NCBI RefSeq assembly: GCF_042656125.1
Contig: NZ_JBHSOC010000006.1
DNA length: 24,000 nucleotides
Origin: Kitasatospora cinereorecta
GTDB taxonomy: Bacteria > Actinomycetota > Actinomycetes > Streptomycetales > Streptomycetaceae
Reading direction: 5' to 3' (one strand)
In this document: positions 12,957-22,370 of the stretch, piece after piece
Layout of the letters: each line of letters begins with the position of its first letter
How positions within the stretch are numbered: position 1 is the stretch's first letter
The notes under the pieces: generated by a model
Database searches by the model: none
What the model was told of the DNA's origin: nothing
Seen by the model: only the letters and a program-made list of their open reading frames with translations
Position numbers and translations under genes: made by a program

Positions 12957-13502
12957 ATGACGTCACTCGAGTTGCGCACCGCGCTCGCCCGGCCGTCCCA
13001 GGCCGAGCGGGACCAGGCGCTGGACGTGCTGCGCGACGGCGTCGGCAACGGCCGGCTCTCGCACGACACCTTCATCCGCCGGATGGAGCTCGTCCTCACC
13101 GCCCGCAGCCGCGCCGAACTCGCCGACGTCGTCTCCGACCTCCACACCTACGGCCGGGTCTCCCGGCTGCTGCTGCGCACCGTCGCCAGGGTGTCCGCGC
13201 TGAACGTCCGGCTGCGGCACACCTGGCAGGCCGAGCAGGTGCCGCGGCTGCGCCTGCCCGGACCGGGCGTCACCCGGCTGACCATCGGCCGGATGACCGG
13301 ATCCGACCTGCGGCTGGGCGACAGCACCGTCTCCCGCAACCACGCCGAACTGCGGTGGGAGAGCGGCGACTGGGTGCTGCACGACCTCGGCTCCAGCAAC
13401 GGCACCTACGTCAACGACCTGCGGGTGGCCGGCGCCGTGGTGGTCCGCCCCGGCGACCTCGTCCGCTTCGGCCGCCAGGCCTTCCACCTCACCGTCGACT
13501 GA
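12957..13502 (+). CDS. DUF1707-like N-terminal domain plus C-terminal FHA domain protein
   Basis: The N-terminus RPSQAERDQALDVLRDGVGNGRLSHDTFIRRMELVLTARSRAEL is DUF1707/SHOCT-like. The C-terminus LTIGRMTGSDLRLGDSTVSRNHAELRWESGDWVLHDLGSSNGTYVNDLRV has the FHA core residues G-R...S-R-x-H...S-x-N-G-T. Confidence 0.85.
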   Translation: MTSLELRTALARPSQAERDQALDVLRDGVGNGRLSHDTFIRRMELVLTARSRAELADVVSDLHTYGRVSRLLLRTVARVSALNVRLRHTWQAEQVPRLRLPGPGVTRLTIGRMTGSDLRLGDSTVSRNHAELRWESGDWVLHDLGSSNGTYVNDLRVAGAVVVRPGDLVRFGRQAFHLTVD

Positions 13503-13529
13503 CCGACGCCCGCTGCGGTACCACCGGCG

Positions 13530-14162
13530 TCAGTACGTCCGGCAGAGCCCGGCCGCGCCCGCGCCGGTGGCCGCCGCGAGCCGGAGCATCCGCAGCGGCC
13601 CGTCCAGCAGCTCGGCCGGATCGTAGCCGGGTGCGTCACCGGTCGCGGCGATCCAGTCGGTGATCCCGGCCAGCACCTCGGCCCGGCGCCGACCGGAGAG
13701 GTCGAGCACCCGCTCGGCGGCGGGCAGCGAGTCCCGTACCTCCTGCGCCGTCAGCAGGAAGTCGCCCAGCATCCCCGGCAGCTGCAGCGCGGCGTCGTGG
13801 CCGAGCGCGTAGCAGAGCGCGGTGGCCGGGTCGGCCTTGCGCAGCACGGCGGCGAAGTGGGTGCCGGCCTGCTCGACGAGGTTCAGGCACGCCTCGCGCA
13901 GGGCCTCGGCAGCCGGTGTCTCCGGGTGGGCGGAGCGGACGAGCGCGGCGAAGCGCTCCGCGGCGCGCGTGGCGTGGACCCGGCCCCCGGAGTCGTGTTC
14001 GAGCATGGGTTCGCCACCCTCCGCCCACCACCGCAGGGAGTCGCCGAGATCACGCGAGGGCCCTCCGGTGCCCGGTTCCCACAGGTGGAGGAAGCGGAAC
14101 GGCAGGTCACGCGCCTCGGCGTCGGGAATCGGGCCGATCAGCCACAGTCCGGTCCAGCTCAT
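13530..14162 (-). CDS. Hypothetical protein (no recognisable family)
   Basis: Track ORF 13530..14198 starts at a TTG. I prefer the in-frame ATG at 14162 (MSWTGLWLIG...), but both starts have weak RBS. GC3-rich coding-like composition. Divergent from the toxin operon. Confidence 0.45.
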   Translation of the reverse strand: MSWTGLWLIGPIPDAEARDLPFRFLHLWEPGTGGPSRDLGDSLRWWAEGGEPMLEHDSGGRVHATRAAERFAALVRSAHPETPAAEALREACLNLVEQAGTHFAAVLRKADPATALCYALGHDAALQLPGMLGDFLLTAQEVRDSLPAAERVLDLSGRRRAEVLAGITDWIAATGDAPGYDPAELLDGPLRMLRLAAATGAGAAGLCRTY

Positions 14163-14280
14163 GGTCCCGAGTCTGGGACTGGTGGCGGACGACGGCAACC
14201 GCGTACCGTCATGAGGCGTCGTTAGCTTGTACTACCGATCCGTATTCTGGCGGTACGTCTGTGCGCGAGGGGGCACACTC

Positions 14281-15006
14281 ATGGCGATCGAACTGCCCGA
14301 CGAAGTGGTGTCGTTCCTCTCCGTCATCGGCATCAACTGGCCGACCGTGAACGAGGACAGCGTGCGGGAGTTCGCCTCCCACGTCCGGGAGTTCGCCGAG
14401 AACGTCGAGTCGGCGCACCAGGACTCCACCGCCACGATCCAGAAGCTGGGCGAGGCGTACGAGGGCGCGTCCTACGAGGCGCTGCTCGCCAAGTGGGCCC
14501 AGCTCTCCGACTCGCACATGAACGAGCTGGTCCAGGCCTGCCACGTGGTGGCCACCGCGCTGGACGTGGCCGCCGACGTGATCGTCGCCATGAAGGTCGA
14601 GACGATCGCCGAGCTGGTCGCGCTGGCCGCCGCGTTCATCGCCGACCAGGCGGCCGCCGTGGCCACCCTCGGCGCCGCCGAGGCGGCCGTCATCCTCATC
14701 GAGGAGGCGGCGAAGCGGTTGATCAACTACCTGGAGCAGCAGCTGGAGCAGTACATCATCGGCCAGGTGGTGACGGCCGCGATCGACCCGCTGGTGGAGG
14801 TCGTGGCGAACGCCGTCTCCGGGCTGGTGTTCCAGGCCGCCGAGGCCGCCCTCGGGGTGGACGGCGGCGGGGGCGGCGGCACCGGATTCCGGATCGACCC
14901 GGAGGCGCTGGAGGCCCACGCGCAGATGATGCACGACCACGCGGAGACCGTGGCCGGCCACGCGCAGACGTTCCAGGCCAAGGCGGCGGGGGTGAGCTTC
15001 GAATGA
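14281..15006 (+). CDS. WXG100-like / putative T7SS-signal-type helical protein (toxin trafficking module encoded as a separate ORF)
   Basis: Track ORF 14227..15006 trimmed to ATG 14281 (GAGGGGG upstream). The N-terminus MAIELPDEVVSFLSVIGINWPTVNEDSVREFASHVREFAENVE...LGEAYEGASYEALLAKW resembles the N-terminal helix-turn-helix domain of actinobacterial polymorphic toxins, with YEG in the WxG position. It is followed by Ala-rich amphipathic/hydrophobic helices, a G6 linker and a second helical segment FRIDPEALEAHAQMMHDHAETVAGHAQTF. Confidence 0.65.
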   Translation: MAIELPDEVVSFLSVIGINWPTVNEDSVREFASHVREFAENVESAHQDSTATIQKLGEAYEGASYEALLAKWAQLSDSHMNELVQACHVVATALDVAADVIVAMKVETIAELVALAAAFIADQAAAVATLGAAEAAVILIEEAAKRLINYLEQQLEQYIIGQVVTAAIDPLVEVVANAVSGLVFQAAEAALGVDGGGGGGTGFRIDPEALEAHAQMMHDHAETVAGHAQTFQAKAAGVSFE

Positions 15007-15995
15007 CCAACCAGATCGTGAAGGCGCTGGAAGAGGGCGCCCAGAAGATCGGCAAGACCCTCGCCGAGGACGCCGGCAAGGCCGTCAAGGACCTCTACCA
15101 CTCGGCCGGCGACAACCTGAAGAAGGTCGCCCACAACACCCGCGAGGCCGACCGCCACCACGAGGGCGAACTCAAGCGGATCCTCGGCGGCGGCTCCAAG
15201 AACGGCCCGCACGGCCCCGGCACCCCGCGCAGCCCGCACGGCCCGGCGGGCGAGGGCGGCAAGAAGAAGTACTTCATCCACGACGACGGCCGCGTCCAGG
15301 AGCTGCGCAACGGCAAGCTCCACGACCTGGACCCCAAGGACGGGTCCGGCATCCACACGCTGCTCGACTCCTCGAAGAAGGACCACGTCAAGGACCCGAC
15401 CGAGAAGGACATGCGGTCGACCTACCACGCCCGCAAGAACAAGAAGAACCCGAGCGAGAAGGTCTCCAGCGAGAAGATCGACTCGCCGACCGAGCTGTCC
15501 CACGCGGTCGAGGAGGCCCGCCGCGCCAAGGGCGACTACGGCGGCACCAACTACGCCTCCCTGCACTACAAGGACGCCGACGGCAAGGAGTTCGTGCTGG
15601 TCGGGCAGAGCGGCGACCTGCGCAGCCACTCCGAACGCTCGATCGGCAAGCCGCTGCTCGGCGGGCGCGAGGGCAACGTCCAGGAGCTGTACACCGAACG
15701 GGCGCCCTGCCAGAAGGACGCCAACTGCGAACGCTGGCTGGCCAGGCACTTCGAACCGCACAACGACGACATGAAGGTCAGCCACGGCGTCGACTACAAC
15801 AGCAGCCTCCCCAAGGAGGAGCGCGACTGGGGCCACAAGGCCTACCTCGACCAGCTCAAGCAGGACCACGCGGCCGGCAGCCACGGCGGCACCATGGGCT
15901 CCCACGACTTCGACGCGAAGGGGCAGGAGAACATGGAAGCCGCCGAGGCCAGGCGGCAGGAACGGGCCGCCAAGCGGGCCCGCAAGGGTCTGTAG
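15003..15995 (+). CDS. Polymorphic-toxin-type protein with a C-terminal zinc-dependent nucleic-acid deaminase domain (SCP1.201/DddA-like or YwqJ-like clade)
   Basis: ATG 15003 overlaps the upstream stop (ATGA, 15003-15006). The first 170 codons of track ORF 14493..15995 are an out-of-frame overlap with the previous gene. The protein has a helical N-terminus, a Gly/Pro linker, and a Lys-rich middle. The C-terminus reads YASLHYKDADGKEFVLVGQSGDLRSHSERSIGK...ELYTERAPCQKDANCERWLARHF, i.e. HxE (15627-15635) and PCx5C (15705-15728), the deaminase zinc/catalytic signature. Confidence 0.65.
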   Translation: MTNQIVKALEEGAQKIGKTLAEDAGKAVKDLYHSAGDNLKKVAHNTREADRHHEGELKRILGGGSKNGPHGPGTPRSPHGPAGEGGKKKYFIHDDGRVQELRNGKLHDLDPKDGSGIHTLLDSSKKDHVKDPTEKDMRSTYHARKNKKNPSEKVSSEKIDSPTELSHAVEEARRAKGDYGGTNYASLHYKDADGKEFVLVGQSGDLRSHSERSIGKPLLGGREGNVQELYTERAPCQKDANCERWLARHFEPHNDDMKVSHGVDYNSSLPKEERDWGHKAYLDQLKQDHAAGSHGGTMGSHDFDAKGQENMEAAEARRQERAAKRARKGL

Positions 15996-16027
15996 AGTCC
16001 ATGGCGCCGGAAGCGGAGGAGTGACGG

Positions 16028-16591
16028 ATGCTGGTGCAGATCGACTGGAGCGTGGTCTCCGGGGAACACGTCCCGGCGGGCGGGATGCTGCGGCTCCGCA
16101 AGGAGGCGGCGGCCCGGATCTGGTCCGACGAGGACGCGGCGCGGTTCGCCGTCGAGGTCGGCGTGCCGCACTCGAACGGCCTCTTCCGGATCGTCGCCGA
16201 ACTGGCCGAACGCGACCCGGCGAGCCCCGACTGGGCCTTCGTCGAGCCGTACGAGGGCGGCCGGGTCGACACCCCGCACGGACCGCTCCAGCAACTCGGC
16301 GAGGTCTACCAGTCGCTGGTGTACGTCCACCACGGCGACGGCACGGTCTGGATCTCCGACCCGGACTCCGAGGTCGAGTACGAGCTGGTCCACCGGGACC
16401 TGTCCTCGTTCGCGTACCTGGTCTACAAGATCGCCGCGGAGAAGCCCCGCCCCGAGGAGGACCCCGACCCGTTCGACTGGGCCGACGCCGAGGAGATCAT
16501 CCGCGAGGACACCACCGCCTGGGACCCGCTGCCCTTCGAGAGCGGCGCCCACTTCTGGGAGATGTACCTGGAGTCCTACCCGATGCTCTGA
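16028..16591 (+). CDS. SUKH-4-like immunity protein candidate
   Basis: GGAGGAG RBS, starting 32 nt after the toxin stop. An acidic 187-aa protein. The core DGTVWISDPDSEVEYELVHRDLSSFAYLVYKI ... AWDPLPFESGAHFWEMYLESY aligns by eye with the N-terminal domain of the next gene (GAEFYLAPDRTVRAVLLGVDVPEMPVSSGLDRFAAGLLLL ... LDPWAFEEREAWWPRVLDDL) and with my recollection of SUKH-4 proteins. Confidence 0.55.
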   Translation: MLVQIDWSVVSGEHVPAGGMLRLRKEAAARIWSDEDAARFAVEVGVPHSNGLFRIVAELAERDPASPDWAFVEPYEGGRVDTPHGPLQQLGEVYQSLVYVHHGDGTVWISDPDSEVEYELVHRDLSSFAYLVYKIAAEKPRPEEDPDPFDWADAEEIIREDTTAWDPLPFESGAHFWEMYLESYPML

Positions 16592-16724
16592 GCCGCGGCG
16601 CGGACCTGGTCGGACGCGAGGGCACGGCGGCCCGGGACCCGCTGCCCCGCGGCGGTGGGGGCGGTTCCGGGCGGGGTACCTTGAGGACAATCCGATGCTC
16701 TGGTGAAGGGACGAGTGCGCGCTG

Positions 16725-17558
16725 ATGAGTGATGACCTTTCCGCCGCGCTGGTGGCGCACTTCGGCGAGCGCGGCCTGCGAAGCCTGGAGTTCGCGCCCG
16801 AGGGGCCGCTGCGCAGCCCCGGGCTGCCGCTGCAGGTGGGGCCGTACTTCTTCGCGGCCGAGGCGTCGGATCCGCTGTCGCTCGGCCAGTACGCGGCCGG
16901 GCTCGGGACCGACGCCGGGCCGATGGCCGGTCAGCTGCGGATCGGGACGGACCGGGGCGCGGAGTTCTACCTGGCGCCGGACCGTACGGTGCGGGCCGTG
17001 CTGCTGGGGGTGGACGTCCCCGAGATGCCGGTCAGCTCCGGCCTGGACAGGTTCGCCGCCGGGCTGCTGCTGCTCGACCGGAACCTGCCCGCGCTGGCCT
17101 CGGCCGACGCTGACGACGCGTTCGCCGCGTACCTGCGGCTGCGGCAGGGGCTGCTGGAGCTGGACCCGTGGGCGTTCGAGGAGCGGGAGGCGTGGTGGCC
17201 GCGGGTGCTGGACGACCTGCGGCGGCCGCTGAACGTGGCGTCCTCGGCGGCGTTCGAGTACCTCGACGCGCAGGGGGCCAAGCAGATCGCGACCGAGTTC
17301 GGCGGGCCGGGCCTGCCGCACCCGGAGGAGCTGCTGTGGCACCGCCTGCGCGCGGAGGGCGTTGAACCCGAGCAGGTCACCGCGGTGTACTGCGAGCTGG
17401 AGCCGTGCCTGATGCCGGGTCACTACTGCGCGCTGTGGCTGGCGCAGACCTTCCCGGAGGCCGCGTTCACCCACCGCTTCGACTACGGCGAGAGCGCGGA
17501 GTCCCGGGAGGACGGGATCAAGGCGCTCATGATCAGCTTGGCCGAGCAGCAGAGCTGA
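16725..17558 (+). CDS. SUKH-4-like domain fused to a deaminase domain paralogous to the upstream toxin
   Basis: Residues 1-165 are SUKH-4-like (see previous entry). Residues ~170-260 read AFEYLDAQGAKQIATEFGGPGLPHPEELLWHRL...AVYCELEPCLMPGHYCALWLAQTF...HRFDYG. They align position-for-position with the toxin's SLHYKDADGKEFVLVGQSGDLRSHSERSIG...ELYTERAPCQKDANCERWLARHF...HGVDYN. HxE is at 17319-17327 and PCx6C at 17403-17429. Confidence 0.65.
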   Translation: MSDDLSAALVAHFGERGLRSLEFAPEGPLRSPGLPLQVGPYFFAAEASDPLSLGQYAAGLGTDAGPMAGQLRIGTDRGAEFYLAPDRTVRAVLLGVDVPEMPVSSGLDRFAAGLLLLDRNLPALASADADDAFAAYLRLRQGLLELDPWAFEEREAWWPRVLDDLRRPLNVASSAAFEYLDAQGAKQIATEFGGPGLPHPEELLWHRLRAEGVEPEQVTAVYCELEPCLMPGHYCALWLAQTFPEAAFTHRFDYGESAESREDGIKALMISLAEQQS

Positions 17559-17645
17559 GCGGTCGGGGCCGAGCGGCCGGGCCGAGCAGGCAGACGAGAA
17601 CGACGAGCGCGGCGGGACGGCCGTACGGCGGGGGAGGGCGTGAGC

Positions 17646-19436
17646 ATGACTGAGGGCGGGTGGCGGATTCCGGCGCTGGGAGCCGGGCGGCGACCGGCGG
17701 GTCTGGCGCTCTTCGGATGGCTGGACGACCCACGGGCACCCCGGCTGTGCCGGGTGGCGGGCTCCGCGGGGTCGGGCAAGTCGCACCTGCTGGCGTGGCT
17801 GGTGCAGGCCGGGACGACCGAGGAGACTCCGGGCGACCGGCGGGTGCACGCGGTGCTGCCGGCGGCCGGGGCGAGCCTGCGGGCCGTGGTCTGGTCGCTG
17901 GGGCAGCAGTTGGGCGTGGTGGCGCACCGGCCCGGGCCGCTGCTGGAGGTGCTGGCCGCCGACGAGCGGCGCACCGTGCTGTGCGTGCCCGAGCTCGACC
18001 TCGCCGCCGAACCGCAGCGGCTGGTCGAGGAACTGCTCGACCCGATGCTGCGCCTGCCGCACGTCCGGCTGGTGGTGGAGGCCGCCACCGGCGGCGCTGC
18101 CGCGTCGGCGTTCACGGCGGTCGCGGACCCGGCCGTGCTCGACCTGGACGAGCCGCAGTGGACCGACCGGGAGCGCTTCGCCGCCTGGGCCGCCACCGCG
18201 GGCGCCGACCCGGAGGGCTTCCCGCACCCCGGCCGGTCGCTCGGCCGGGCCGCGCCGCCGCCCCCGGCGAGCGCACCGGAGCTGATCGCCCTGGTCGCCC
18301 GCACCCCCGAGGGCAAGCTCGACCTGCGTGCGGCCGGCGAGGACCTGCTCACCGAACTGTGGACCGCCGCCGCCCGGATCGGCGACCTCGGCCCGCTGGC
18401 CGCCGACCCGCTGCTCTGGGCGCTGGCCCGGCCGGTCGCCGTGACGGCCGCCGTCGAGGGCCGCGACGACGCCCTGGCCCGGCCGTGGGACGCGGTCGGC
18501 CCCGCCCTGGCCGAGGAGCCCGACCCGGCGGTGCGCGCCGCCGTGCTGCGCACCCGGCTGCTGGGCACCGACCCCGCCGCGGCGGCCGCACTGCCCACCA
18601 CCGGCGGCCGCTGGGTCGCCCGCTGGGCGCAGTGGTCGGACGGCCGGACGGACCCGGTGGCCGCGGTCGGCGCACTCACCGTCGGCGCCGGCGAGTACGT
18701 CGCGCAGCTGCTGGTGACCGACCCGACCGGTGCGGTGCGCACCCTGGACGCCGCCACCGGCCGCCGGCTCGGCACCGTGGTGCTGCCCGCGCCGCGGCCG
18801 TGGCGCGGGCTCGCGGTCACCTCGGCCGGCGCCGTGGTGCTGCTCGACGGGTACGGCGGCGCCGAACTGGTGGCGCCGACCGAGCAGCGGCCCGGACTGG
18901 AGCCGTACGCGCTCCAGGAGGCGCTGGACGAGATCGCCGCCGAGGCGGCCGAACTCACCGCGGTGGCCGCCGTCGGCCGGCTCCCGAAGGCCGCGCCGGC
19001 CTTCGGCGACGCGGCCGGGGTGGTGCACTGGTACCAGGACGGCCTGGTGGAGAGCGAGCGGCTGCACCGCGGCGCGGTCACCGCCCTCGCCGGTACGGCG
19101 CTGGCCGCCGAGGGCCGGGCCGACCCGGAGATCCCGCTGCTGGCCAGCGGTGGCCTGGACGGCGCGGTGCGCCTGTGGGGCCCCGGCACCGTGCCCATGA
19201 ACCAGCCGATCGACCTGCACCCCCACCCGGTCACCGCGGTGGCGGTCGGCACCACGGCGGCCGGGCCGGTGGTGGCCGCCGCCTGGGCCGACGGGCTGGT
19301 CCGGCTGCGCCACCTGAACGGCGACACCGACGTCCTCGACCTGCGGGTCGGCCCGGAGGTGCACGCCCTGGCGATGGTCGGCAACCTGCTGGTGGTCGGC
19401 ACCCCGGACGGCGTCGCCGCGATCGACACCCACTGA
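17646..19436 (+). CDS. P-loop NTPase (STAND/NACHT-like) with C-terminal WD40-type beta-propeller repeats
   Basis: I prefer ATG 17646 (GGAGG 8 nt upstream) over GTG 17640. Walker A is GSAGSGKS (17760-17783) and a Walker-B-like RTVLCVPELD follows. An Ala/Pro-rich helical middle comes next. The C-terminal repeats include a canonical WD unit HRGAVTALAG...PLLASGGLDGAVRLWGP, then HPHPVTAVAV...AAAWADGLVRLRHL and VHALAMVGNLLVVGTPDGVAAIDTH. Confidence 0.7.
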   Translation: MTEGGWRIPALGAGRRPAGLALFGWLDDPRAPRLCRVAGSAGSGKSHLLAWLVQAGTTEETPGDRRVHAVLPAAGASLRAVVWSLGQQLGVVAHRPGPLLEVLAADERRTVLCVPELDLAAEPQRLVEELLDPMLRLPHVRLVVEAATGGAAASAFTAVADPAVLDLDEPQWTDRERFAAWAATAGADPEGFPHPGRSLGRAAPPPPASAPELIALVARTPEGKLDLRAAGEDLLTELWTAAARIGDLGPLAADPLLWALARPVAVTAAVEGRDDALARPWDAVGPALAEEPDPAVRAAVLRTRLLGTDPAAAAALPTTGGRWVARWAQWSDGRTDPVAAVGALTVGAGEYVAQLLVTDPTGAVRTLDAATGRRLGTVVLPAPRPWRGLAVTSAGAVVLLDGYGGAELVAPTEQRPGLEPYALQEALDEIAAEAAELTAVAAVGRLPKAAPAFGDAAGVVHWYQDGLVESERLHRGAVTALAGTALAAEGRADPEIPLLASGGLDGAVRLWGPGTVPMNQPIDLHPHPVTAVAVGTTAAGPVVAAAWADGLVRLRHLNGDTDVLDLRVGPEVHALAMVGNLLVVGTPDGVAAIDTH

Positions 19437-19492
19437 CGCCCCCGGACGGGAGGCTCCGACCGGCGTGGTCCGCCGATCCGTGCGATGATCGA

Positions 19493-19506
19493 AAAGAATT
19501 TTCTTT
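19493..19506. promoter_or_regulatory. AT-rich inverted repeat AAAGAA-TT-TTCTTT upstream of marR (candidate operator/promoter element)
   Basis: This is the lowest-GC stretch of the window (19485-19535: gatgatcgaaaagaattttctttagcgagagtaatgacataggctaaggacc). 6-bp arms with a 2-bp spacer. A TAGGCT -10-like hexamer and an AAGGA RBS follow before ATG 19536. Confidence 0.35.
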
Positions 19507-19535
19507 AGCGAGAGTAATGACATAGGCTAAGGACC

Positions 19536-19970
19536 ATGCCCGAGATGTCCGAGGACGACCTGGCGGCCATCAGCCAGCTCAGATCGTCCGCGATGCGCCT
19601 CGCCCGCCGGTTGCGACACCAGCGGGTCGAGGAGTCGCTGAGCCCCACCGAAATGGGGGTGCTCGGCACGCTTGCCCGCTGCGGCAGAGCCACGCCTGGC
19701 GAACTCGCCAGGAAGGAGCACGTCCAGCCGCCGTCGATGACCAGAATCATCGCGATGCTGGAGGAGAAGGGACTGGTACGGCGCGAGCCGCACCCCGAGG
19801 ACCGCCGACAGGTGGTCGTCAGCAGTACCGAGCAGGCGGAGACGATCCTCAACGAGAGTCGCCGCCGACGGAACGCCTGGCTGGCCGAACTGGCCGAAGG
19901 GCTCACCGACGAGGAGTGGGCCGTCCTGCGCGACGCCGCCCCCGTGCTCTACAAGCTCGCCCACCTCTGA
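19536..19970 (+). CDS. MarR-family transcriptional regulator
   Basis: LSPTEMGVLGTLARCGRATPGELARKEHVQPPSMTRIIAMLEEKGLVRREPHPEDRRQVVVSST is the canonical MarR winged-helix with the DRR wing motif. Confidence 0.9.
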   Translation: MPEMSEDDLAAISQLRSSAMRLARRLRHQRVEESLSPTEMGVLGTLARCGRATPGELARKEHVQPPSMTRIIAMLEEKGLVRREPHPEDRRQVVVSSTEQAETILNESRRRRNAWLAELAEGLTDEEWAVLRDAAPVLYKLAHL

Positions 19971-20113
19971 GCCCGCCCCACCGGCGGGCTCGCCTCCGGC
20001 CAGGACAGTTTCGGGAACGTCAGAAGGAGTACCGCATCACCGCAGGCCCGACAGCAGAAACACGCAGCGCGGCGGCAGCACGGAGTGCCGCCGCGCGCCG
20101 AGGGGAGACCACC

Positions 20114-21604
20114 GTGACACCGCCGGCCGCAGCCGTTGCCGCCGCCAACCGCACCTACGACTCCACCACCGAGCCGGCAGCATCCACCGCTGCCACCGCC
20201 GAGAGCCAGGCGCCCGCCCCCGTGGGCCTGCCCGGCACCGGCGACGACGACCCCGACGAACGCACCGCGGCGGCCCGACCCGCCGCTCCGACGGGTGGCA
20301 GGTTCACCCGCCCCGGAGGAATGTTCTCCTCCCTCCGGATCCGCAACTACCGCTACTACTTCGCCGGCCAGGTGGTCTCCAACACCGGCACCTGGATGCA
20401 GCGCATCGCCCAGGACTGGCTGGTCCTGAGCCTGACCGGCAGCCCCTTCGCCGTCGGCGTCACCACCGCCATGCAGTTCCTCCCGATGCTGCTGCTCGGC
20501 CTGTGGGGCGGCGTCCTCGCCGACCGCCTGCCCAAGCGGCGCCTGCTGGTCGCCACCCAGGGCGCCATGGGCCTGCTCGCCGCCGGACTCGCCGTACTGA
20601 CCGTCACCGGCCTGGTCACCGCCGGCCACGTGTACGTCTTCGCCCTGTTGCTCGGCCTGGTCACGGTGGTCGACAACCCGACCCGGCAGGCCTTCGTCAG
20701 CGAGATGGTGCCCGGCAAGGACCTGGCCAACGCCGTCAGCCTGAACGCCGCCAACTTCCAGACCGCCCGGCTCGTCGGCCCCGCCGTCGCCGGCCTGCTG
20801 ATCGCCGCCGTCGGCAGCGGCTGGGCCTTCGCCGTCAACGCGCTGTCCTTCGCCGCCGTCATCGGCGGACTGCTCGCCATGCGGGAGAGCGAACTGCGGC
20901 CTACTGCGCCGATCGCGCGCAGCAAGGGCCAGCTGCGCGACGGCCTGCGGTACGTCAAGGAACGCCCCGAACTGCTCTGGCCGATGGTCCTGGCCGGCTT
21001 CATCGGCACCTTCGGGTTCAACTTCCCCACCCTGCTCGCCGGCTTCGCCCACGACACCTTCAAGGTCGGCGCGGGCGAGTACGGGCTGCTCAACACCGCG
21101 ATGGCGGTCGGCTCGCTGGCCGGCGCCCTGCTCGCCGCCCGGCGCGGGGCCCCGCGCATGCGGGGACTGGTCGGCGCCGCGATCGCCTTCGGCGCGCTGG
21201 AGGTGCTCGCCGCGTTCGCGCCCGGGTACTGGACCTTCGCGATCCTGCTCACCCTGATCGGCGTGTTCGGGCTGACCTTCAACACCTCCGTCAACTCGGC
21301 GCTGCAACTCGCCACCGACCCCGAGATGCGGGGACGGGTGATGGGACTGCTGGTACTCGTCTTCACCGGCGGCACCCCGATCGGCGCCCCCGTCGTCGGC
21401 TGGGTCACCGCCACCTACGGACCCCGCTTCGGCCTGCTCGCCTGCGGCCTCGTCTCCGCCGCGGCCGCCGGTACCGTCGCGCTCGTCCTCGCCCGCGCGG
21501 CCGACCTGCGACTCGCCTTCGACCGCCACCCGGCACGCCGCGGACGGGTCTTCGCCGTCGTCCCGCGCCACGCCAACCCGAGCGCGCTGGCCCAGGCCTG
21601 CTAG
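20114..21604 (+). CDS. MFS transporter (EntS/MFS_3-like)
   Basis: Track ORF 19916..21604 overlaps marR. I prefer GTG 20114 (GGGGAG 6 nt upstream); ATG 20321 (MFSSLRIRNYRYYFAGQ...) is the alternative. LRIRNYRYYFAGQVVSNTGTWMQRIAQDWLVL is the typical N-terminus of this MFS subfamily, and there are about 12 hydrophobic segments. The Ala/Pro/Thr-rich leader is low complexity if translated. Confidence 0.85.
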   Translation: MTPPAAAVAAANRTYDSTTEPAASTAATAESQAPAPVGLPGTGDDDPDERTAAARPAAPTGGRFTRPGGMFSSLRIRNYRYYFAGQVVSNTGTWMQRIAQDWLVLSLTGSPFAVGVTTAMQFLPMLLLGLWGGVLADRLPKRRLLVATQGAMGLLAAGLAVLTVTGLVTAGHVYVFALLLGLVTVVDNPTRQAFVSEMVPGKDLANAVSLNAANFQTARLVGPAVAGLLIAAVGSGWAFAVNALSFAAVIGGLLAMRESELRPTAPIARSKGQLRDGLRYVKERPELLWPMVLAGFIGTFGFNFPTLLAGFAHDTFKVGAGEYGLLNTAMAVGSLAGALLAARRGAPRMRGLVGAAIAFGALEVLAAFAPGYWTFAILLTLIGVFGLTFNTSVNSALQLATDPEMRGRVMGLLVLVFTGGTPIGAPVVGWVTATYGPRFGLLACGLVSAAAAGTVALVLARAADLRLAFDRHPARRGRVFAVVPRHANPSALAQAC

Positions 21605-21619
21605 TCCTGGTTCCTCCAC

Positions 21620-21766
21620 CAGGGGCTCGGGGAACTGCGAGGCCGACCACGGGTCCGGCGAGACCGACGAGGTCGGCCAACCCTTGTTCAGGGGCGCGAG
21701 GAACTGCGCGCCAGACCATCCCTCTACGTGAGCGGGTGGCTGGTCGCGCAGTTCCTCGCGCCCCTG
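21620..21766. repeat. Cluster of three copies of a 22-bp GC-rich motif, two forming a perfect inverted repeat (REP/MITE-like intergenic element)
   Basis: CAGGGGCGCGAGGAACTGCGCG (21689-21710) and its exact reverse complement (21745-21766) flank a 34-nt spacer. A third, direct copy CAGGGGCTCGGGGAACTGCGAG (21620-21641) has 3 mismatches. A small 8-bp hairpin GGCCGACC/GGTCGGCC (21641-21648 / 21671-21678) lies between them. Confidence 0.85.
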
Positions 21767-21779
21767 CTTTGATGGGCGC

Positions 21780-22370
21780 ATGAGGCTGTTCGTGGCGGTC
21801 AACCCGCCGGTCGAGGCGTTGCAGGAGCTGTCCGACGCCGCAGCGCCGTTGCACGGCCTGTCCGGCGCGGACCGGCTGCGCTGGAGCGACCCGGACGGGT
21901 GGCACCTGACGCTCGCGTTCCTCGGCGAGGTCCCGGCCGCCGACGTACCGGCGCTGGAGGAGCGGCTGGGCCGGGTCGCCGGCGAGCACGGGGTGCACCG
22001 GCTGCGCCTGGCCGGCGCGGGCTGTTTCGGCGACCGGGTGCTGTGGGTCGGGTTCGACGGCGAGACGTGGGCGCTGCGGCGGCTGGCGGAGGGGGTGCGG
22101 ACGGTGGTCGAGGAGGCGGGGATCGAGTCCGACCAGCATGGGTTCCACCCGCATCTGACGCTGGCCAGGGCGGGCTCCACGCACGGGCAGCGGAGGGCGA
22201 CGCGACGGCTGGCGGCGGGGGAGCTGCAGCTGATGGCGGCCGCGCTGGAGGGGTGGCGGGGAAGCGAGTGGGAGGCGTCCGAGCTGCACCTGATGCGCAG
22301 CGAGCTGGGGTACGGGCCGGCCCGCTACACCTCGGTCCGTGCCTGGCCGCTGGCCAGGTGGGAGGCGTAG
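21780..22370 (+). CDS. thpR: RNA 2',3'-cyclic phosphodiesterase (2H phosphoesterase superfamily, ThpR/LigT)
   Basis: MRLFVAV start. It has the two H-x-T-x motifs of the 2H fold, WHLTLAFLG and HPHLTLAR, at the expected spacing (~90 aa). Confidence 0.85.
   Translation: MRLFVAVNPPVEALQELSDAAAPLHGLSGADRLRWSDPDGWHLTLAFLGEVPAADVPALEERLGRVAGEHGVHRLRLAGAGCFGDRVLWVGFDGETWALRRLAEGVRTVVEEAGIESDQHGFHPHLTLARAGSTHGQRRATRRLAAGELQLMAAALEGWRGSEWEASELHLMRSELGYGPARYTSVRAWPLARWEA

Follow-up and report, generated by a model that had tools for sequence, protein, structure and literature searches.

A SUKH-4-deaminase fusion gene and an effector-less STAND-like NTPase-WD40 gene as a probable constant part of a type VII-type polymorphic toxin cassette

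Two neighbouring genes, here called A and B, lie at the distal end of a toxin island of Kitasatospora cinereorecta and raise the question whether they form a defence system of their own or belong to the adjacent toxin. The window is a stretch of 24,000 nucleotides from contig NZ_JBHSOC010000006.1 (assembly GCF_042656125.1), and Table 1 gives an overview of the features considered. A first-pass annotation made from the sequence alone had placed the two genes on the same strand, 87 nt apart, at the end of the island. This arrangement was confirmed: a WXG100-like gene, a toxin gene (T) and its immunity gene (I) lie upstream on the same strand, and the gap amounts to 87 nt with the ATG at 17646 or 81 nt with the alternative GTG at 17640 as start of B. 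The ATG corresponds to the start of a 100% identical database protein of the same length. GC3 frame analysis supported both open reading frames as real genes (GC3 0.96 each).

Table 1. Genes, domains and motifs of the toxin locus; positions count from the first letter of the window
Feature	Position	Strand	Description
WXG100-like gene	14278..15006	+	Split-off N-terminal trafficking part of toxin; Pfam WXG100_2 E 8.3e-14, WXG100 E 1.2e-12
Toxin T	15003..15995	+	C-terminal XOO_2897-type deaminase (HSE...PCx5C); Pfam XOO_2897-deam E 1.2e-11, aa 180-266
Immunity gene I	16028..16591	+	SUKH-4, cognate to T; Pfam SUKH-4 E 1.8e-21, 77.5 bits
Decayed 3' end copy of second SUKH-4 immunity gene	16592..16705	+	Direct repeats D4 and D8
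Gene A	16725..17558	+	SUKH-4::XOO_2897 deaminase fusion, 277 aa
Gene A, SUKH-4 domain	16806..17216	+	aa 28-164; Pfam SUKH-4 (PF14435)
Gene A, deaminase domain	17241..17531	+	aa 173-269; Pfam XOO_2897-deam (PF14440)
Gene A, deaminase motifs	H-P-E 17319-17327; PCx6C 17403-17429	+	H199-P-E201, P227-C228...C235
Gene B	17646..19436	+	STAND-like NTPase with WD40 propeller and no effector domain; 596 aa; GTG at 17640 as alternative start
Gene B, Walker A GSAGSGKS	17760..17783	+	aa 39-46 counted from ATG 17646
Gene B, WD40 beta-propeller	18603..19433	+	About aa 320-596; profile, AlphaFold2, Foldseek

In a Pfam profile search the SUKH-4 domain of gene A scored 49.2 bits (cut-off 25.5) and the XOO_2897 deaminase domain 85.5 bits (cut-off 27). 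Membership in the XOO_2897 clade was assigned by a score above the threshold together with the motif [HC]xE...PCxxC. These scores bear out the proposed fusion of a SUKH-4-like domain to a zinc deaminase with an intact active site, as do the zinc/catalytic residues H-x-E and (P/A)C-x6-C, which are intact in all of the about 190 gene A homologues. The deaminase assignment of the first-pass annotation stood, whereas the families it had suggested (SCP1.201/DddA or YwqJ) were replaced by the XOO_2897 clade in the Pfam search.

Both domains of A form clades of their own. The SUKH-4 domains share a mean identity of 53% among A proteins and of 18% with immunity proteins; the deaminase domains share 70% among A proteins, which is the highest conservation in the whole cassette, and 26% with toxin deaminases. 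Relatives of A are present in at least 275 species-level genomes, and dN/dS values of 0.17-0.35 indicate purifying selection. Judged by sequence, A is an old, separate monophyletic lineage under purifying selection and no orphan module. A recent local fusion of I with the toxin tip was ruled out by the monophyly of both domains and by identities of 26% and 18% to the partners in the same locus. Neither a trafficking domain nor a hydrophobic segment of transmembrane strength was found in A or B by Pfam search and hydrophobicity check; the lack of a trafficking domain agrees with the first-pass annotation. The WXG100-type helical N-terminal domain, a feature of T7SS substrates, is predicted for the toxin partner gene and not for A or B. 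With no trafficking domain and a constant toxin-type domain, A does not appear to be a polymorphic toxin itself.

The layout of B as a Walker A/B NTPase with a WD40 propeller, resembling STAND proteins, was likewise supported. In the B family the Walker A motif GxxGxGKS and an hhhhP[DE] Walker B motif are conserved; G39, G42 and G44 of the Walker A motif are invariant and K45 is nearly so (alignment A2). The NACHT score of B (21.4 bits) lies below the Pfam cut-off of 26.7, and a family profile aligned the NTPase to proteins passing the NACHT and nSTAND1 thresholds (caspase-NACHT/nSTAND1-WD40). Searched against PDB sequences, the family profile matched solved WD40 propellers with E-values from 1e-24 to 8e-14. 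The AlphaFold2 model is confident (pLDDT 89.3, pTM 0.86) and all-beta between aa 324 and 594; its best Foldseek match was full-length Apaf-1 (E 5.5e-13), and WD40 proteins were matched as well. The NTPase starts at about residue 10-30, so that there is no fused effector or adaptor domain. On its predicted domains, B is best classed as a probable STAND NTPase that carries a WD40 sensor but lacks an effector.

In longer relatives of B the region N-terminal of the NTPase is occupied by a caspase, giving caspase-NACHT-WD40 proteins, or by an extra domain that contains a T7SS-associated motif. The latter arrangement is seen in B-like proteins of about 900 aa, which adjoin a T7SS_signal::ADP-ribosyltransferase toxin; a further B-like protein contains a fusion to NCBIfam NF033532 ('T7SS-associated protein'). 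The extra domain of the 900-aa proteins gave only a partial match to the NF033532 motif, and phmmer detected no similarity to other proteins of their locus. B-like genes also occur solitary in housekeeping contexts with no toxin nearby (loci L081, L085 and L087).

Upstream of A, the stop codon of the WXG100-like gene overlaps the start of T (ATGA). The WXG100-like gene reached 38 bits with TIGR03930, which is below the cut-off, and T has a GC3 of 0.97. The split into a WXG gene and a toxin gene is conserved across Kitasatospora loci, while both parts are fused in Streptomyces; I follows T in every locus compared. T and I show all three features of polymorphic toxins after Zhang et al. 2012, namely N-terminal trafficking, a variable C-terminal toxin domain and an adjacent immunity gene. 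The segment between I and A matches positions 16483-16591 at 74 of 109 nt, a score reached by 0 of 500 shuffles. Its translation ends with FRAGYLEDNPMLW before the stop codon, that of the intact immunity gene with FWEMYLESYPML, and in related species a pair of immunity genes occupies this site. The segment is probably the deletion scar of a second immunity gene.

Comparison of loci separates a constant from an exchanged part of the cassette. Between loci L026 and L029 identity is 94% for A, 85% for B and 80% for the toxin N-terminus, compared to 42% for the toxin deaminase and 32% for I. Correlations between identity matrices amount to 0.88-0.95 within the group formed by the A domains and B, and the matrix of the toxin deaminase correlates with that of I at 0.91. 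By these identities, the constant part comprises A, B and the toxin N-terminus, while the deaminase tip of the toxin is replaced jointly with I. Such replacements leave the SUKH-4 domain of A unaffected (94% identity in A against 42% in the toxin tip), and A as cognate immunity protein of T was ruled out by its constancy. All toxin tips of this cassette are XOO_2897 deaminases, which suggests a deaminase-specific role for A and not generic trafficking. Constant components of polymorphic toxin loci are those linked to trafficking (PMC3482391; PMC7159879). As a further candidate role, A-B as a targeted mutator diversifying toxin tip and I was rejected: ten closely related locus pairs showed no excess of substitutions or transitions in these parts compared to A, B and the toxin N-terminus. 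The pattern of divergence of tip and I is that of cassette replacement.

The conservation of A and B as neighbours proved strong. Of 80 species-level loci, 75 have B as the next gene downstream of A, and the two reading frames share 4 bp at 15 of the 48 junctions that were called; spacing this tight suggests a complex between the gene products. A scan of 13400-20000 revealed no promoters or terminators, and operon structure is therefore deduced only from the short gaps and overlaps. Directly upstream of B, gene A occupies the place that the caspase or the T7SS-associated domain holds in longer B relatives.

Independence of the pair from the T7SS-type toxin, considered in the first-pass annotation, was contradicted. 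Of 76 informative loci, 72 have the toxin gene beside A and B, and no case of A-B lacking a toxin was seen where the sequence extended far enough to tell. Look-ups starting from the toxin found A and B in 4 of 4 loci; in one of them the orientations are scrambled and all five genes are still present. The plasmid copies (4 of 4) have the order A-B-T-I and adjoin an integrase and a resolvase. Gene order differs by genus, being WXG/T-I-A-B in Kitasatospora, A-B-T-I in Streptomyces and T-I-A-B-WXG in Embleya. The five-gene group recurs in at least five genera as well as on plasmids, and the cassette is distributed over hundreds of species of the Streptomyces family.

In four loci a clean gene A stands alone and has kept purifying selection (dN/dS about 0.3), with B absent together with T and I. 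No separate SUKH-4 gene is located nearby in these A-only loci and the enzyme motif is intact, which makes it plausible that the deaminase is held inactive in cis, as had been suggested before. The A-only loci and the solitary B-like genes imply that, in cis at least, neither gene strictly requires its partner.

These data are best read as a split STAND module in which A takes the place of the effector and which would serve a T7SS-type polymorphic toxin cassette. That A-B is an integral, constant part of this cassette we regard as very likely. According to the mechanism proposed here, T would be exported via an ESX/type VII system while I shields the producer. A would remain cytoplasmic, its own SUKH-4 domain keeping its deaminase inactive. 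The propeller of B would bind a constant feature, most likely A and perhaps the toxin N-terminal region, B acting as a nucleotide-driven switch and A as its output module. It would follow from such a switch that A-B works for the toxin system within the producing cell, as a control, a hand-over factor or a fail-safe, and is no free-standing phage sensor. Taken as a whole, the statement that A-B is the conserved non-secreted half of a mobile five-gene cassette working by this mechanism has even chances in our judgement. Somewhat more tentative, with chances falling just short of even, is the part in which A is the output module of B and is masked in cis; the masking is based on logic and on the pTM of 0.77 for the predicted two-domain A chain and not on observed contacts. 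Any one downstream purpose of A-B, taken singly, is at best rather unlikely to be the right one. A pure adaptor role of A would not need the invariant catalytic glutamate. Counted against the split STAND module are the restriction of the toxin tip to XOO_2897 deaminases, the lone A loci, the lone B-like genes and the lack of T7SS core genes, none of which were found in the window or in recurrent flanking clusters.

Among the alternatives, a division into two separate jobs survives best, and we consider it possible but doubtful. B would then be a producer-side, EccA-like cytosolic NTPase that handles the toxin for type VII export and A a broad-spectrum immunity-type protein for which catalysis is irrelevant; through its conserved SUKH-4 domain, and perhaps with deaminase-deaminase pairing as an aid, A would neutralise the XOO_2897 toxins of neighbours. 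This would agree with the four A-only loci, which lost B with T and I while A is still under purifying selection, and with the unchanged A across T-I swaps, as expected of a generalist binder. Furthermore, B-type NTPases adjoin or are fused with T7SS-linked elements, and many A proteins bear the NCBI product name 'SUKH-4 family immunity protein'. Nevertheless, none of about 190 sequences departs from H-x-E or from the two cysteines, the deaminase is the most conserved domain, the tight junctions speak for a protein complex of A and B, and B-like genes are also found where no toxin is nearby.

The first-pass annotation had modelled A-B as a phage-sensing pair. As an autonomous antiphage or abortive-infection system, B would sense a phage cue via its WD40 domain and unmask A, and nucleic acid would be mutated or damaged; the location beside the toxin would reflect clustering of conflict genes. 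The STAND layout of B with its Apaf-1-like fold, the intact active site of A, the translational coupling with A in the effector position and the mobility of the module, which is also plasmid-borne, are in line with such a system, and one locus adjoins a gene for a 2024-aa TIR-NACHT-WD40 protein. However, A-B was never encountered without the toxin in the 76 informative loci, A and B co-vary with the trafficking region at the toxin N-terminus, and the NTPase clade of B is tied to T7SS toxin elements elsewhere. No phage homologues of A were found. A PADLOC search gave no significant match for either protein (none for A, marginal P-loop hits to DpdH and mad8 for B, E 0.003-0.01). On the question of an enrichment near known defence genes, the recurrent flanks of A-B loci are housekeeping genes and not defence islands. 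An autonomous antiphage system is thus unlikely, and less likely than a split STAND module serving the toxin cassette.

We regard it as improbable that A-B is a toxin-sensing innate immune module, a bacterial guard of NLR type at the toxin-immunity interface. A generalist SUKH-4 domain of A would capture any free cytoplasmic XOO_2897-type toxin, be it the own one after loss of immunity or a non-kin one from a neighbour, and the capture would release the deaminase domain of A. B would read the capture via its propeller, and nucleotide-driven assembly would lead to death of the hyphal compartment or to retaliation. The guard would thereby be built from a paralogue of the toxin-immunity pair that it monitors.

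Finally, it is hardly conceivable, and at the sequence level already contradicted by the conservation data, that A is an orphan or fossil from an immunity gene fused to a following orphan toxin tip and only incidentally adjacent to B: the domain order immunity-then-toxin is expected of read-through between array members, orphan tip-plus-immunity cassettes exist and an immunity-gene deletion scar lies just upstream of A, but the monophyly of both domains with their low identity to the same-locus partners, the number of genomes with a relative of A, the dN/dS values and the invariant motifs all oppose it. A fusion confined to polymorphic toxin arrays had been taken beforehand as an argument for an orphan module; the confinement was largely observed, whereas the orphan status was not, A being a conserved monophyletic lineage.

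Several known systems share single traits with A-B. STAND NTPases such as Apaf-1/NACHT proteins, bacterial caspase-NACHT-WD40 proteins and antiviral Avs have the P-loop NTPase, the helical region and the WD40 sensor in common with B. Unlike these, B has no effector, stays below the Pfam NACHT threshold and shows no Avs/PADLOC match; a separate protein presumably acts as its output, and it is encoded within a secreted-toxin locus. RADAR consists of the RdrA ATPase and the adenosine deaminase RdrB, which has an amidohydrolase fold, and AvcD of the dCTP-deaminase defences is of the dCMP-deaminase type and acts on nucleotides. In these systems too an NTPase is paired or fused with a deaminase to give an intracellular effector, but neither is known to be attached to a secreted toxin, and no PADLOC model matched A or B. 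In Staphylococcus aureus, EsaE and EsaG serve the EsaD nuclease as cytosolic helpers encoded beside a type VII toxin/substrate, and mycobacterial EccA is an AAA+ ATPase with TPR repeats. By description, A-B resembles these cytosolic helpers adjoining a type VII toxin or substrate, one of which is an ATPase with a repeat domain. EccA differs from B as an AAA+ protein with TPR repeats and not a STAND NTPase with WD40, and none of these helpers is known to include an enzyme paralogous to the toxin.

T and I themselves fit exactly the description of T7SS-type polymorphic toxins with XOO_2897 and SUKH-4 in the parts of the surveys used here (PMC3239186, PMC3113570, PMC3482391): a WXG100-type N-terminus, a variable XOO_2897 tip, a SUKH-4 gene next to it, swapping of tip and immunity gene, and the existence of orphan cassettes. 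The same parts of these surveys make no mention of a SUKH-4::deaminase fusion or a STAND NTPase-WD40 protein as constant members, and in contrast to the toxins they cover, the tip studied here stays in one deaminase clade with no fold switching. A single polypeptide that joins a toxin-clade deaminase to an immunity-type domain has a precedent in the OTT_1508 deaminase toxins, to which a SUFU immunity domain is fused (Iyer et al. 2011, Table 1, PMC3239186); compared to A, both the deaminase clade and the immunity fold differ, and no NTPase partner is described for them. A literature search found no paper describing the present module, and a search on ARPP-2 found none either.

Polymorphic toxin loci are usually read as toxin, immunity gene and trafficking parts. 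To these, a widespread cassette, found also on plasmids, adds a putative, effector-less STAND switch and a catalytically intact toxin paralogue joined to an immunity paralogue. A role of the pair in controlling toxin hand-over would make it the first described NTPase-WD40 accessory of actinomycete type VII toxins; if it is a fail-safe or a sensor, NLR-like signalling would be linked to interbacterial toxins.

Members of the XOO_2897 clade deaminate cytidine in single-strand DNA in a base-editor assay (bioRxiv 10.1101/2023.05.21.541555), and by analogy the A deaminase is probably a single-strand DNA cytidine deaminase as well. Foldseek searches with this domain gave weak matches only, to cytidine deaminases, blasticidin-S deaminases and APOBEC3H. 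As a compact, highly conserved deaminase of the XOO_2897 clade with a built-in candidate inhibitor domain, A may be of interest for switchable base editors.

Comparison of gene neighbourhoods establishes, at the level of sequence, that gene A (a SUKH-4 domain fused to an XOO_2897 deaminase domain) and the P-loop NTPase-WD40 gene B directly downstream make up the constant half of a mobile cassette of five genes. The other members are a WXG100-like gene, the XOO_2897 deaminase toxin gene T and the SUKH-4 immunity gene I. Since the genome has a G+C content of about 72–80%, genes were called by third-position G+C (GC3). In database searches A matched a Kitasatospora paracochleata protein with 99% identity, and B and toxin T each matched Kitasatospora cinereorecta proteins with 100% identity. 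Ordinary transport and metabolic genes precede the WXG100-like gene, and no type VII secretion (T7SS) core genes were found among them.

Cassette genes, downstream genes and local sequence features
Feature	Coordinates	Strand	Remarks
WXG100-like gene	14278-15006	+	GC3 call
Tandem 21-nt units	14916-14986		three units, 3′ end of WXG100-like gene
Toxin gene region	15001-16000		AT skew
Deaminase toxin T	15003-15995	+	GC3 call; start overlaps WXG100-like stop as ATGA
SUKH-4 immunity gene I	16028-16591	+	GC3 call
Decayed repeat	16592-16705		in 133-bp I–A spacer
Gene A	16725-17558	+	GC3 call
Gene B	17646-19436, or from 17640 with GTG start	+	GC3 call
MarR, MFS, LigT genes	19536-22370		downstream of B

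A total of 80 species-level loci was surveyed, 76 of which held enough sequence to judge the presence of a toxin. B lies directly 3′ of A in 75 of the 80, and the two genes overlap by 4 bp at 15 of the 48 junctions called. In 72 of the 76 loci A and B are accompanied by an XOO_2897 toxin whose N-terminus is WXG100-like, and four loci have A alone; A–B without the toxin was found in none of the 76, and all four look-ups starting from the toxin returned loci containing A and B. The first-pass annotation had proposed an intracellular sensor-effector pair responding to infection or stress. Its domains, the conserved co-occurrence of the pair and the intact active site hold, but independence from the T7SS-type toxin and the defence reading are not supported.

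The gene order is WXG/T–I–A–B in Kitasatospora and Streptacidiphilus, A–B–T–I with WXG fused to the toxin in Streptomyces, and T–I–A–B–WXG in Embleya. In Kitasatospora phosalacinea (L094), a second cassette lineage between DUF3152 and DUF3151 near purSQL, the five genes remain clustered, but their orientations are scrambled (A< T> I> WXG< B>). Most Streptomyces encode the WXG100-like and deaminase parts as one protein of 510–610 aa; in Kitasatospora, Streptacidiphilus and some Streptomyces (L001–L019, L091–L093) they are separate proteins with genes overlapping by ATGA, a split kept across many species and thus not a sequencing error. A–B–T–I is present on four large Streptomyces plasmids, one with an adjoining integrase and resolvase. 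On plasmid NZ_CP054921.1 (L088) the genes bordering the cassette encode a resolvase, a tyrosine recombinase and a MazE/Doc pair, and a PT-HINT gene and a transposase lie near one chromosomal Streptomyces cassette (L093). The chromosomal copies lie among differing sets of housekeeping genes (argS/lysS; ubiD-ubiA/ubiX; MarR-MFS-LigT; purSQL/DUF3152). MarR-MFS-LigT 3′ of B is 85–92% conserved across 15 Kitasatospora loci (within L001–L018) and absent from the Streptomyces and Embleya cassette loci; it is the chromosomal context of this Kitasatospora cassette lineage.

The loci L026 and L029 share 94% identity in A, 85% in B and 80% in the toxin N-terminus (94% in the first 150 aa), and 42% in the toxin deaminase and 32% in I. 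Near-identical A and B with exchanged toxin tips were also seen in L039/L047 and L033/L049, and the exchanged tip was an XOO_2897 deaminase in every case. Identity matrices of the two A domains and B correlate with one another at 0.88–0.95, and those of toxin tip and I at 0.91, but correlations between these two groups are only 0.66–0.82. Constant parts with exchanged tip and immunity are the classic polymorphic-toxin pattern (PMC3482391). Exchange pattern and correlations thus put A and B, like the trafficking region, in the constant part of the locus. Another plasmid carries an orphan cassette of toxin tip and immunity gene that lacks A–B. Deaminase-type hypermutation of the variable genes by A–B was rejected, as these genes had no surplus of substitutions or transitions in a comparison of ten close locus pairs.

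A matches Pfam SUKH-4 (aa 28–164, 49 bits) and XOO_2897-deam (aa 173–269, 85.5 bits), both well over threshold. Its deaminase is of the XOO_2897 clade, as in the upstream toxin, and not of the SCP1.201/DddA or YwqJ type considered previously. Relatives exist in at least 275 genomes (scan of one genome per species), and 120 of 120 homologues among the matches listed share the two-domain architecture (259–322 aa). The zinc ligands and catalytic glutamate (H-P-E ... (P/A)C-x6-C) are kept in every one of approximately 190 A-type sequences, and pairwise dN/dS is 0.17–0.35; A is evidently a working gene and not a fossil. A recent local fusion was ruled out by the separate clades formed by its deaminase (mean identity 70% within, 26% to toxin deaminases including those of the same locus) and SUKH-4 domains (53% vs. 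18%). A is also no cognate immunity protein for T, being unchanged where T tip and I are exchanged. In an AlphaFold2 model (pLDDT 82, pTM 0.77) the deaminase fold weakly matches blasticidin-S deaminase, cytidine deaminase and APOBEC3H. A base-editor assay showed cytidine deamination on single-strand DNA by enzymes of the XOO_2897 clade (bioRxiv 10.1101/2023.05.21.541555).

In four Streptomyces species (L042, L045, L060, L077) only A is left at chromosomal sites, downstream of argS or between ubiA and ubiX, that hold the whole cassette in relatives. B, T and I have left no traces at these four loci, and no SUKH-4 gene lies nearby; the lone copies have an intact active site and a dN/dS of about 0.3 among themselves.

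B carries a conserved Walker A (GSAGSGKS) and a Walker B of the form hhhhP[DE]. Its NACHT match (21.4 bits) is below the threshold of 26.7. The family profile retrieves solved WD40 propellers (E 1e-24), and the confident AlphaFold2 model (pLDDT 89, pTM 0.86) matches full-length Apaf-1 best in Foldseek (E 5.5e-13), together strong evidence for a P-loop NTPase with WD40. When the profile was searched against 1.8 billion representative proteins, the NTPase aligned to residues ~280–510 of 1300–1800-aa proteins combining Peptidase_C14 (caspase), NACHT/nSTAND1 and WD40; the NTPase models passed threshold in one of three such proteins scanned. According to this alignment, B is predicted to belong to a STAND clade but to lack an effector domain.

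B-like proteins of about 900 aa add an N-terminal domain (~215 aa) to a complete B-like NTPase and propeller; in four proteins this domain partially matches NCBIfam NF033532, 'type VII secretion system-associated protein' (E 1e-9 to 1e-5). Their genes lie directly 3′ of a T7SS_signal::ADP-ribosyltransferase toxin with EspC/WXG-like and SseB-like partners. Such a locus, separate from the cassette, occurs in Kitasatospora spp. (L083, L084) and comprises SseB-like, EspC/WXG-like, T7SS_signal::ADP-ribosyltransferase, two ADP-ribosylglycohydrolase, ARPP-2 and ~900-aa B-like genes. Another B relative, in the orthologous toxin locus, has a full C-terminal NF033532 domain (102.8 bits, cut-off 85). The link is not exclusive: lone B-like genes are also found close to purL/DUF3152, next to a GntR regulator gene and in the vicinity of the ram cluster. 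In Kitasatospora atroaurantiaca (L081) the site of the L094 cassette is occupied by just two B paralogues (598 and 603 aa), and the remaining four cassette genes are absent.

As B lacks the N-terminal effector of its relatives and the A gene occupies precisely that position, frequently with translational coupling to B, we infer that A–B may be a STAND module split over two genes, in which A would be the output. A lacks its own cognate immunity gene. Left unchecked, a DNA deaminase would be harmful, and A-only loci without a SUKH-4 gene keep an intact enzyme under purifying selection; masking in cis by the fused SUKH-4 domain would be the simplest explanation. The pTM of the two-domain A chain (0.77) would agree with domains fixed relative to each other, but no contacts were seen. 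The strict association with XOO_2897 toxins, together with the ties of the B clade to T7SS, suggests a purpose bound to the toxin system within the producer cell; this may be to control how the toxin is passed to the secretion machine, or to act as a fail-safe responding to free toxin. Lone A copies, lone B copies and the invariant catalytic glutamate are the main points that do not fit neatly with this reading. They leave room for two separate jobs, in which A may be a generalist immunity-type protein and B an export helper, and also for A–B as a possible toxin-sensing guard. Antiphage defence is disfavoured, since PADLOC gave no match for A and marginal P-loop matches only for B, no phage homologues of A were found, and the cassette flanks are housekeeping genes. 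The only defence-like neighbour among the loci viewed is a 2024-aa TIR-nuclease-NACHT-pentapeptide-WD40 gene adjoining the cassette on the opposite strand in Streptacidiphilus fuscans (L091, 12819-16882).

The Aravind-group surveys (PMC3239186, PMC3113570, PMC3482391) describe T7SS-delivered XOO_2897 toxins with SUKH-4 as immunity protein, occasional SUKH-toxin fusions, and OTT_1508 deaminases whose own fused immunity domain is SUFU, unlike the SUKH-4 of A. A literature search gave no account of the SUKH-4::deaminase family paired with a STAND NTPase-WD40 as constant members of a cassette; the toxin-immunity pair is known already, and A and B as constant members are apparently undescribed.

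The repeat in the I–A spacer is a decayed copy of the last ~36 codons of I (74 of 109 nt identical, a score reached by 0 of 500 shuffles). It is probably a remnant left by deletion of a second immunity gene; two such genes occupy this position in related species. The tandem units (CCACGCGSAGA...) encode a His/Ala-rich stretch with 7-residue periodicity (HAQMMHD HAETVAG HAQTFQA). In the toxin gene AT skew reaches 0.47 and G+C falls to 0.68, but GC3 is 0.97, so the anomaly stems from a Lys/Asp/Glu/His-rich protein and not from foreign codon usage.
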